64,000 nt of DNA, taken from positions 226,570 through 290,569 of the forward strand of contig JADJCK010000009.1 of assembly GCA_016703265.1 (NCBI GenBank), in the 5' to 3' direction. The DNA is from a bacterium. Lineage in GTDB: Bacteria > Krumholzibacteriota > Krumholzibacteriia > LZORAL124-64-63. This document shows, piece after piece, positions 2,080 to 3,345 of this stretch (its first letter is position 1; each line of letters begins with the position of its first letter). Both the position numbers and the translations under genes were made by a program. The notes beneath the pieces are model-generated. The model made no database searches and had not been told where the DNA came from. It worked only from the letters and a program-made list of their open reading frames with translations.

Positions 2080-3345
2080 TCAGTCGACCGGCGACGGTGT
2101 CAGGTCGCCCCACACCACGCCGAGAGGAACTGCGTAGATACGGTCACCCAGAGGGACCATTGATTCTCCGTCGTAGAGCAGAACTCCGCAACGGAAGCGT
2201 TTGCCGCTTGCGTCGCGCAGTCGCTCAAGTCCGCGACGATCGGCATCGCGAAGTGTCGCCGCGGCTTTGACCTCGATACCGACGATCCGGCCGGGGCCTC
2301 GCTCCAGGACTATGTCGACTTCCTGCTGATCCTTGTCCCGGTAGTGGGAAAAGCGCAAGTCGTGTTCCCACCCGCTGGCCTGGCGGCGGAGTTCCTGGAC
2401 GACGAATGTCTCGAGCAGTTGCCCCAACAGCGTGCGATCGCGGATCAGGTCGTCGGCCTCGACGCCGAGCAGCGCGCACGCCAGGCCCGTGTCGGTCATG
2501 TGGAGTTTAGGTGTCTTGACCAGGCGCTTCAGTCGATTGGCATGCCAGGCCGGCAGCTCTTCCACGAGAAACACATGACGCAACAGGGTCAAGTAGTCCC
2601 GCACTGTCGTGCGGCTGACGCCGAAAGGCCCGGAGATCTCGCTCACATTGACCAGGCGGGCCGTCTGGCCTGCGGCCAGTTCCAGCAGGCGGGGCAGGAT
2701 GTCGAGCCTCTGGATGCGGGCGAGGTCACGGACATCCCGCTGGACTATCGCTTCCAGATAGTCGCGGACCCAAGCCCGCCGACCGCGTTCGGTGTCCCGC
2801 CGTACCGCCTCGGGGAATCCGCCCCGGACAATGAGATCGGCCACCTTCGGTCCAAGCCGTTCGCCTTGGGCCACCTTGAAGTCGGCAGCGAAGATCCTAT
2901 CGAGGAACGTCGGCTGACGATGAGCGATCTCTACTTCGCTCAGGGGATGGAGACGAACGATCTGCATCCGGCCGGCGAGGGAATCGGCCACGCTCGGAAC
3001 AAAGAGCGCATTTGCCGAGCCCGTCAGCAGGAAGCGTCCGGACCGTCGATCGCGATCAACCGACTGCTTGATGGCGAGGAACAACTGCGGGACCCGCTGG
3101 ACCTCGTCGATCGTGACCGGGCCTTCGAGGTCGAGCACGAAGCCGGCAGGGTCCGCCTGCACAGCCAGGAACGTCGCGGGGTCATCAAGGGTCAGGTACC
3201 GGCGACCATCGTCCGCGCCAAAGCTTCGTGCCAGTGTGGTCTTGCCACATTGGCGGGGCCCGTGCAGCAGCACCACCGGGGAATCGGCGAGGGCCTCGCG
3301 CAGGCGGGATCGGACCAGTCGGGGATGGTGGCCGGTTGTGTCCAT
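2080..3345 (-). CDS. COG1373-family ATPase (AAA_14 P-loop plus DUF4143 C-terminal PD-(D/E)xK-like domain), paralog 1
   Basis: P-loop GPRQCGKTT, Walker B VTIDEVQRVPQLF, C-terminal EVDIVLE...GIEVK nuclease-like motif. Paralogous to 27090..28340. Start chosen by alignment with paralog 2 (MDTTGHHPRL); an alternative ATG is at 3354. Confidence 0.8.
   Translation of the reverse strand: MDTTGHHPRLVRSRLREALADSPVVLLHGPRQCGKTTLARSFGADDGRRYLTLDDPATFLAVQADPAGFVLDLEGPVTIDEVQRVPQLFLAIKQSVDRDRRSGRFLLTGSANALFVPSVADSLAGRMQIVRLHPLSEVEIAHRQPTFLDRIFAADFKVAQGERLGPKVADLIVRGGFPEAVRRDTERGRRAWVRDYLEAIVQRDVRDLARIQRLDILPRLLELAAGQTARLVNVSEISGPFGVSRTTVRDYLTLLRHVFLVEELPAWHANRLKRLVKTPKLHMTDTGLACALLGVEADDLIRDRTLLGQLLETFVVQELRRQASGWEHDLRFSHYRDKDQQEVDIVLERGPGRIVGIEVKAAATLRDADRRGLERLRDASGKRFRCGVLLYDGESMVPLGDRIYAVPLGVVWGDLTPSPVD

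Follow-up and report, generated by a model that had tools for sequence, protein, structure and literature searches.

AAA_14-DUF4143 (PDC-S01) genes in a Krumholzibacteriota contig: three copies, a predicted nuclease fold and 22-nucleotide phased repeats upstream

A stretch of 64,000 nucleotides from a bacterium of the Krumholzibacteriota (GenBank assembly GCA_016703265.1, contig JADJCK010000009.1, positions 226,570 to 290,569), hereafter the window, carries three members of the AAA_14-DUF4143 family (COG1373, listed in PADLOC as the defence candidate PDC-S01), namely two intact genes, copies 1 and 2, and a decayed one, copy 3. The best explanation overall, in which moderate confidence can be placed, is that copies 1 and 2 are functional members encoding an ATP-gated single-chain nuclease, which would act as a stand-alone barrier to invading DNA under the control of an array of short boxes, and that copy 3 is a dead member. 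The nuclease and PDC-S01 assignments are already in the literature and are not new, the window genes being ordinary additional members of a known, uncharacterised kind of gene. Beyond the original prediction, an earlier note made from the letters of the window, the useful and testable additions are a 22-nucleotide (nt) phased array of direct repeats reaching the start codon and a structural reading of the protein.

Family membership, predicted fold and distribution

Both intact genes were found where they had been predicted, on the minus strand (Table 1), and their products exceed the Pfam gathering cut-offs for the two domains expected of them, i.e. AAA_14 (PF13173; cut-off 27; 83.0 bits and E = 2.5e-23 for copy 1, 94.0 bits and E = 9e-27 for copy 2) and DUF4143 (PF13635; cut-off 28.1; 174 bits and E = 2.4e-51, 158 bits and E = 2.1e-46, respectively). 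They also match the PADLOC model of PDC-S01, PDLC04790, over profile positions 10-420 of 422 (E = 9.5e-170 and 4.1e-167); no NCBIfam model matches either copy. The two proteins align end to end and gap-free at 52% identity over 416 residues, rather than at the roughly 45% first estimated, and share the motifs initially pointed out, that is the P-loop GPRQ[CS]GKTT, the Walker B motif DEVQRVP and the C-terminal motif EVDxVLE...G[IV]EVK. In an alignment of 45 homologues, K35 of the Walker A motif, D80, E81, E312, D344 and K360 never vary, and 44 of the sequences retain E358. Searches of all six frames by tblastn and profile hidden Markov model (HMM) place exactly three family loci in the window, instead of the four originally counted.

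In the AlphaFold2 model of copy 1 (predicted local distance difference test, pLDDT, 87; predicted template modelling score, pTM, 0.89), the chain divides into an ATPase domain (residues 1-140), a helical domain (147-205), a winged helix (214-283) and a PD-(D/E)xK domain of αβββαβ order (304-412). The first three make up, in the model, a tripartite module of nucleotide-binding domain, helical domain and winged helix, for which fold comparison returned a wheat NLR resistosome (13.9), WRR4A (13.5), CED-4 (12.5), Avs5 (10.1) and Orc1/Cdc6 (10.1), the STAND and Orc1/Cdc6 matches aligning over about 240-257 residues. Judging from this model, the protein may work like a STAND switch; it is not classed as a STAND protein because it has no separate sensor or repeat domain (TPR, LRR, WD40), all 421 residues being taken up by the ATPase, helical, winged-helix and nuclease domains. 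As for Pfam STAND families, copy 2 alone has matches, to nSTAND3 (17.5 bits) and nSTAND6 (17.4 bits), both below the cut-offs of 27.

Modelled alone, the C-terminal domain reached a pLDDT of 90, and its fold matches are almost all restriction-fold nucleases, including McrC (9.0), Cap4 (8.5), Can2 (8.5), NgoMIV (8.2), BpuSI (8.1) and NucS (7.8). The α-β-β-β-α-β core of the PD-(D/E)xK superfamily is present in the model, with E312 in the first helix, D344 in strand 2 and E358xK360 in strand 3, i.e. in the placement expected from the modelled secondary structure. The restriction-endonuclease-like fold suggested by the original prediction is thus borne out by the structure prediction and by the conserved acidic and lysine residues; a non-nuclease winged helix devoid of such a triad was not what the modelling returned. 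The assignment as a PD-(D/E)xK nuclease with a complete E...D...ExK site stands, on the model, cleavage activity being predicted. Structure searches found no solved structure for any family member.

Regarding distribution, at least 7,999 homologues were retrieved at E <= 1e-10, out of 8,000 candidates scored. Orthologues of copy 1 at 77-92% identity occur in about a dozen metagenome-assembled genomes (MAGs) labelled Krumholzibacteriia, "Fibrobacter" or unclassified bacterium. Genes of Planctomycetota, Chloroflexota and Gammaproteobacteria share 60-66% identity with copy 1, more than copy 2 does, and copy 3 stands even further apart. Copies 1-3 are thus old or separately acquired members of the family and not recent duplicates, as their description as paralogues could have implied. 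Relatives often harbour two or three family copies in the space of a few kb (tandem loci L002, L003, L024 and L030 in our numbering of related loci). Locus L024 (6001-12722), from a Krumholzibacteria-like MAG, has up to three AAA_14-DUF4143 genes in about 7 kb, one being an orthologue at 84% and another a paralogue at 36%, besides an HMM match at 11286-12722. Homologues were present in 442 of 72,556 plasmid records and in 13 of 50,697 phage records, the latter all unannotated gut "Bacteriophage sp." contigs; phage carriage is therefore weak, and essentially never seen on bona fide phages.

A phased repeat array before the start codon

When the sequences upstream of copy 1, copy 2 and related genes were aligned, direct repeats came to light that have an exact period of 22 nt and reach the start codon; they form four boxes in copy 1 and, in copy 2, a proximal set of three and a distal cluster (Table 1). 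With one mismatch allowed, the box occurs in the window upstream of copies 1 and 2 only, save for one stray one-mismatch match at 36788. Inverted copies of the box are lacking downstream of both genes, hence no terminal inverted repeats are made by it. Taken over at least six phyla, genes of the clade have between 3 and 8 such direct repeats in the approximately 100 nt before the start codon, in a conserved register to the ATG (-75/-53/-31/-9). Period and register are shared across phyla, the box sequence being clade-specific: cTTGCAATCCGCGG in Planctomycetota and Proteobacteria MAGs (2-4 copies), CCSGATTGGACGG in a Kofleriaceae MAG (8 copies), TTTCAATYGGTCG on a Pseudohalocynthiibacter plasmid (3 copies), CCAAT..CCG on a Novosphingobium plasmid (4 copies) and AAnnrGACGG on the Agrobacterium pAt and Shinella plasmids (3 copies).

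A strict de novo test, asking for at least three in-phase copies, was positive for 13 of 42 family upstream regions, always at period 22, as against 1 of 181 upstream regions of other open reading frames (ORFs) of the same loci and 15 of 1000 random pieces. Autocorrelation was evaluated on 31 genes with at least 41% identity, together with 184 control upstream regions and 12 distant family members. Among the 31 genes, mean self-identity was 0.442 at lag 22 and 0.384 at lag 44, compared with about 0.25 at other lags. Lag 22 was the best lag in 22 of these clade genes, against 2 of the controls and 2 of the distant members, and the best lag was 22, 23 or 44 in 29 of the 31. Other upstream elements are seen in more distant members, such as repeats of 23-24 nt in Rhizobium K15/93 and Sulfitobacter or a 44-nt palindrome upstream of a Moraxella plasmid copy, and subfamilies seem to carry their own operator types. 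On a Gemmatimonadaceae contig (L030:1-3670), two family genes with 54% and 34% identity to copy 1 share yet another upstream element, TTGATTTTCACCCACGCCATGGGTAATTATCA, and not the 22-nt boxes. Such upstream repeats are not described in the parts of the literature on the family that were searched.

Since the boxes are phased by two helical turns, the last of them lies over the start of translation and each protein clade has its own box sequence, the array is most simply an operator. With such phasing, all sites lie on the same face of the DNA. Expression is probably controlled through the array, and the reading preferred here is cooperative binding by a winged-helix protein, possibly the product of the gene itself. 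No other gene travels with the array, which makes the protein's own winged helix the obvious candidate for reading the boxes. Two-turn phased direct repeats beside a gene encoding a DNA-binding protein of winged-helix or AAA+ type are found likewise in the 22-bp iterons of Rep proteins, the MalT boxes and the end sites of TnsB and MuA. The family array, a putative operator, differs from these arrays in that it abuts the start codon and has no inverted partner array.

The 22-bp period, the adjacent AT-rich stretch and the initiator-like AAA+/winged-helix gene also resemble iteron and archaeal orc1 origins, and the protein could then be an ATP-dependent, sequence-specific binder of the array comparable to MalT, Orc1/Cdc6 or an iteron Rep, with the boxes as iterons for the replication or maintenance of integrated or plasmid elements and the nuclease as an accessory. 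Many homologues do reside on large plasmids, and the Shinella plasmid copy lies directly upstream of repABC. Nevertheless, such a regulator or initiator is very unlikely: the invariant nuclease triad implies that selection acts on the nuclease as an enzyme, the boxes stand at a fixed distance from the start codon for which an origin has no need, the plasmids concerned have their own replication systems, and the majority of copies are solitary chromosomal genes that can be dispensed with, copy 3 having been wrecked by insertion sequences (ISs).

Genomic settings and turnover of the copies

Copy 1 has an amylase gene on one side and a pseudouridine synthase gene on the other, a synteny kept only in the 97% relative L001, the flanks being unrelated among the other orthologues. 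A search for a recurrent partner gene family among the 117 ORFs neighbouring family genes at 30 loci found none; Fic, HEPN and rve_3 genes occurred twice each, with occasional PbeA and IS genes. Matches to PD-T4-6 among these neighbours are probably generic kinases. In the window, a Fic-domain gene resembling SoFic follows copy 2 directly, a pairing kept in L003.

The placement of copy 1 among housekeeping genes, its synteny in L001, the orthologues in related MAGs and the presence of the repair enzymes NucS, Hjc and Bax1 among the most similar solved nuclease folds would suit a housekeeping enzyme of DNA repair or recombination, multi-copy by chance, whose boxes are sites of a global regulator of the host. 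This is to our mind the most improbable of the readings considered. The context is kept only in the closest relative, and copy number is variable, with pseudogenes and a phyletic pattern that suggests cross-phylum transfer. Besides, a global regulator of the host would not account for a box sequence that varies by protein clade across phyla, and the window boxes stand upstream of family genes, bar the stray match.

Copies 2 and 3 and the SoFic-like gene belong to a variable segment of 13.7 kb (18034-31868) that lies beside a tRNA-Asn(GTT) gene and is bounded by repeats of the tRNA end (Table 1). Its G+C content is 0.62-0.66, versus 0.68-0.71 in the sequence after it. A degenerate tRNA-Asn 3' half begins 5 nt past the stop codon of copy 2 (27090-27092), and the tRNA-3'-like piece that follows copy 3 is 88% identical to it (in-window E = 3e-7). 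The unit of about 200 nt at 17870-18070, made of the latter piece and a terminator-like hairpin (GCCCGGGGCGAGAGCTCTCGGGCTTTTT), occurs twice in L003 (78-277 and 4308-4473) and is thus a repeated junction element rather than a unique chromosomal flank. In L003, the order is tRNA-end repeat, copy-1-like gene, tRNA-like piece, copy-2-like gene, tRNA-like piece and Fic. Pfam detected no integrase or recombinase domain in the tested ORFs between 18 and 32 kb, IS transposases being the sole finds; islands, if such they are, are decayed. The simplest reading is that three segments integrated serially at tRNA-Asn and that the integrase has since been lost. The repeat of the tRNA end, D7, was not found elsewhere in a first metagenome scan, and a looser pattern gave 120 matches, none of which extends past the pattern. 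Association with an island, as originally proposed, accordingly holds for copies 2 and 3 and not for copy 1.

The homology of the copy 1 locus with orthologues in other MAGs extends from just outside the outermost box (about 3403-3430) to the stop codon, so that boxes and gene behave as one unit. This raises the alternative of a selfish cassette, in which array and gene are mobile, either homing-like or moved in trans to tRNA hot spots, any benefit to the host being secondary. Arrays of 22-bp sites are also typical of the ends of Tn7 and Mu. A tRNA-Asn-3'-like piece follows both copy 2 and copy 3 within a few nt, in spite of only about 35-40% identity between the two proteins, each of the two tandem copies in L003 has its own tRNA-like piece, and the multiple copies per locus in relatives, as well as the plasmid records, go in the same direction. 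We nonetheless regard such a cassette as unlikely. The unit includes no integrase or transposase, and the absence of inverted boxes downstream deprives it of terminal inverted repeats. A tRNA-like piece after the stop codon is limited to some Krumholzibacteria-type p1-like genes, being absent for window copy 1, L001 and most distant homologues, and intact tRNA genes lie near 3 of 33 related loci only. The fixed register of box to ATG favours expression control, and ordinary elements that integrated one after another, their integrase being lost afterwards, would explain the tRNA-linked repeats equally well.

Copy 3 (18071-19865) has been struck, as originally noticed, by two different ISs, one complete (1212 bp) and one reduced to a fragment, and has suffered internal deletions in addition. 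By tblastn and HMM, its residues 35-113 are encoded at 19865-19632 and about 152-239 at 19710-19426, in two frames; fragments of the copy match PDLC04790 (E = 7e-20 and 1e-13), and one reaches 31.2 bits for Pfam AAA_14. Past the complete IS, direct reading of the sequence shows that the frame resumes, then jumps to the last 40 or so residues and to the stop codon (18071-18073). About residues 106-165 and 250-370 are lost, and with the latter the nuclease core; the DUF4143 domain is thus gone from this copy. Its decay by IS insertion shows that the gene is dispensable. As regards the complete IS, its 12-bp flanking duplication is unusually long, and Pfam gives its 372-residue transposase no DDE or other transposase match, just a weak HTH_38.

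The fragment that replaces the 5' end of copy 3 comes from the rve_3 (IS481-like) IS that is also found some 300 nt from copy 2, on its upstream side and divergently oriented. As well as window copies 2 and 3, AAA_14-DUF4143 genes of four related MAGs (L003:2702-2842; L005:4973-5978; L007:5479-5677; L010:560-1152) have this same IS, or fragments of it, just upstream. Both orientations occur, a pattern suggestive of several independent insertions close to the box array or AT-rich promoter and not of a single junction passed on by descent.

The region at 53448-54002, whose part up to 53930 had been taken for a fourth copy in frameshifted fragments, is indeed decayed; as a family member it is rejected. 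It was negative by tblastn, family HMM (E = 80), PADLOC and Pfam AAA_14, and none of the 74 relatives of its frameshift-corrected reconstruction has DUF4143. The intact relatives are AAA_16-type ATPases (E = 4e-19) of 200-325 residues, in which AAA_14 matches span about 25-55 residues, little beyond the P-loop region, and the best of them matches copy 1 with a BLASTP E-value of 1. These intact relatives have a weak BrxC/BrxD match (E = 2e-5). The remnant is truncated by the adjoining transporter gene (51883-53451), and its public record is a 108-residue hypothetical protein.

The LVIVD-repeat beta-propeller protein encoded at 22766-25318 (850 residues, with a FlgD_ig/T9SS-type C-terminal domain) gives rise to repeat families D1-D4 through a 126-nt DNA periodicity of its gene, near which lie several other T9SS-tailed secreted proteins, e.g. 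an M36 peptidase with P-domain (11846-14842). Long imperfect inverted repeats (families I1-I4, 73-84% over 110-190 nt) between 36893-38483 and 46401-47511 join the gene of a hybrid histidine kinase with PAS/GAF domains (35746-38571) to a large ORF (45290-48541), probably diverged paralogous kinase genes on opposite strands.

Table 1. Positions of the family genes, repeat boxes, tRNA-derived repeats and insertion sequences in the window
Feature	Position	Strand	Evidence or detail
Copy 1, intact AAA_14+DUF4143 gene	2080..3345	-	421 residues; ORF, Pfam, PADLOC, alignment, structure model
Copy 1 motif sites	P-loop 3238-3261; Walker B D80/E81 3103-3108; E312 2410-2412; EVDxVLE...ExK 2266-2322	-	
Copy 1 array	3346..3424	-	Four direct repeats, exact 22-nt period, ending at start codon
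Copy 1 boxes	3424-3413; 3402-3391; 3380-3369; 3358-3347	-	GGCGATTGGACG; GACGATTGGACG; TGCAATTGGACG; GACAATGAGACG
Copy 2, intact AAA_14+DUF4143 gene	27090..28340	-	416 residues; ORF, Pfam, PADLOC, alignment
Copy 2 proximal boxes	28364..28420	-	TGCAATTGGCGC, TACAATCGGCCA, TTCATTTGGACG; spacing 22 and 23 nt
Copy 2 distal cluster	28478..28540	-	GCCAATTGGACG and GGCAATCGGACG 22 nt apart; third box GCAGATTGGCCG further out
Copy 3, N-terminal and middle remnants	19452..19865	-	About residues 35-113 and 152-239; frameshifted, internally deleted, P-loop cut off by IS fragment; tblastn, HMM, PADLOC
Copy 3, remnant past the IS	18071..18238	-	...QLLNVADLAR, then C-terminal tail ...GVVTIPVGAV*; direct sequence reading, weak HMM trace
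Complete 1212-bp IS inside copy 3, after about residue 239	18239..19450	-	26-bp inverted ends TTGTGCCGCCGAGAATGTGTCCGGCC and TTGTGCCGCTGAAATTGTGTCCGGCC; 12-bp flanking direct repeat CCCAACTCCTGA
Transposase ORF of the complete IS	18303-19421		372 residues
Internally deleted rve_3 IS fragment, in place of copy 3 5' end	19862..20012	.	151 bp; 91% and 89% identity to 28803-28903 and 29038-29109
rve_3/IS481-like transposase ORF upstream of copy 2	28634..29617	+	ORF, Pfam
Fic-domain gene directly downstream of copy 2	25787..26887	-	Pfam; PADLOC SoFic E = 4e-30
tRNA-Asn(GTT), anchor of the variable segment	31794..31868	-	
Repeat D7, copy 1	31735..31803	-	Last 10 nt of tRNA-Asn and next 59 nt
Degenerate tRNA-Asn 3' half, then repeat D7, copy 2	26995..27084	-	27084-27064, then 27063-26995; 91-94% identity to D7 copy 1
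Repeat D7, copy 3	21252..21320	-	Degenerate, 68-86% identity
tRNA-3'-like piece and terminator-like flank	17870..18070	-	Piece at 18070-18034, right after copy 3 stop
Putative integrated segment	31793-27064		fn3-domain ORF, rve_3 IS, copy 2
Putative integrated segment	26994-21321		SoFic-like gene, LVIVD protein, beta-helix protein
Putative integrated segment	21251-18034		ORF with no known function, copy 3
Remnant of AAA_16-type P-loop ATPase, not a family member	53448..54002	-	Frameshifted, truncated; tblastn, HMMs, relatives

A candidate barrier to invading DNA

In the mechanism proposed for the ATP-gated nuclease, a single chain would associate an N-terminal NTPase-helical-winged-helix module of the STAND/ORC kind with a C-terminal PD-(D/E)xK nuclease, and nucleotide-dependent switching or oligomerisation of the former, of the kind seen in ORC or STAND proteins, would gate DNA cleavage by the latter, by analogy with McrBC and nuclease-bearing Avs proteins. 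The target would be invading DNA, such as that of phages or plasmids. PDC-S01 was described, in publications dated 2024-2026, as one of 145 candidates that came from genes lying within BREX, DISARM and type I restriction-modification systems. It is reported to be the fourth commonest predicted defence in prokaryotes (9,986 archaeal and 29,494 bacterial instances), with the description of an ATPase fused to a PD-(D/E)XK domain. It is also given as the most frequent single locus in rumen MAGs, and DUF4143/COG1373 was already classed as PD-(D/E)XK in 2012. A Thermus thermophilus AAA_14-DUF4143 gene is reported to be up 6.6-fold in the presence of plasmid DNA.

Several observations weigh against the nuclease barrier. 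Copy 1 is flanked by amylase and pseudouridine synthase genes in an order kept in the close relative, and the neighbours at 30 related loci are mostly housekeeping genes. The protein has no obvious sensor domain of the Avs/NLR kind. The recognition helix shows no clean co-variation with box type, the same TTGGACGG box going with three different helix sequences. In the one phage-challenge test found by the literature search, a PDC-S01 was cloned in E. coli B and is absent from the four of eight candidates listed as protective against T4, T5 and T7. The literature searched holds no biochemical or genetic test of any family member, and neither a mechanism nor a positive phenotype for PDC-S01. The association with defence or mobile genes put forward in the original prediction is consequently upheld in part: the full-length PDC-S01 match, the SoFic-like neighbour, the variable context and the tRNA-linked segment of copies 2 and 3 speak for it, while the housekeeping surroundings of copy 1, the status of defence as a candidate label only and the outcome reported in E. 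coli B speak against it. The three alternatives weighed above, i.e. initiator, housekeeping enzyme and selfish cassette, are all less well supported than the ATP-gated nuclease.

Among the closest known systems, PDC-S01 itself has the same two-domain architecture, in a single gene that is mostly solitary and present in several copies per genome; nothing essential differs, the 22-nt repeats and the STAND/ORC-like reading being missing from the parts of the literature that were searched. The archaeal 'Walker-type' ATPases PABY2304 (PDB 2qen) and SSO1545 (PDB 2fna) of Pfam ATPase_2 also count among them. The STAND ATPases of the Avs/NLR kind (Avs5 SIR2-STAND, 9jap; plant resistosomes, 9h2l; CED-4, 2a5y) possess sensor repeats, of which the family protein of about 420 residues has none, and bear their effector at the N-terminus instead of the C-terminus. 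McrBC distributes its AAA+ GTPase (McrB) and PD-(D/E)xK nuclease (McrC) over two subunits rather than one chain; moreover, McrB is a classical hexameric AAA+ protein with a separate DNA-reading domain, whereas the family shows no sign of modification dependence.

With nearly 40,000 instances in one census, PDC-S01 is abundant, yet its mechanism is unpublished in the literature searched. The fold assignment, an ORC/STAND-like switch joined to a McrC/Cap4-like nuclease with named catalytic residues, offers a handle on it. A second one is the conserved promoter DNA element of defined sequence and 22-bp phasing, which may explain failed heterologous tests if expression is tightly repressed. Besides, the intact, decayed and differently placed copies in one lineage provide a natural series for the study of turnover. 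In a bolder and rather unlikely view, the array would be the loading site of the protein itself, an iteron-binding, nucleotide-driven oligomeric nuclease encoded by an autoregulated cassette that moves between hot spots such as tRNA-Asn. If true, the commonest uncharacterised candidate defence gene would gain both a DNA ligand and a way to move.

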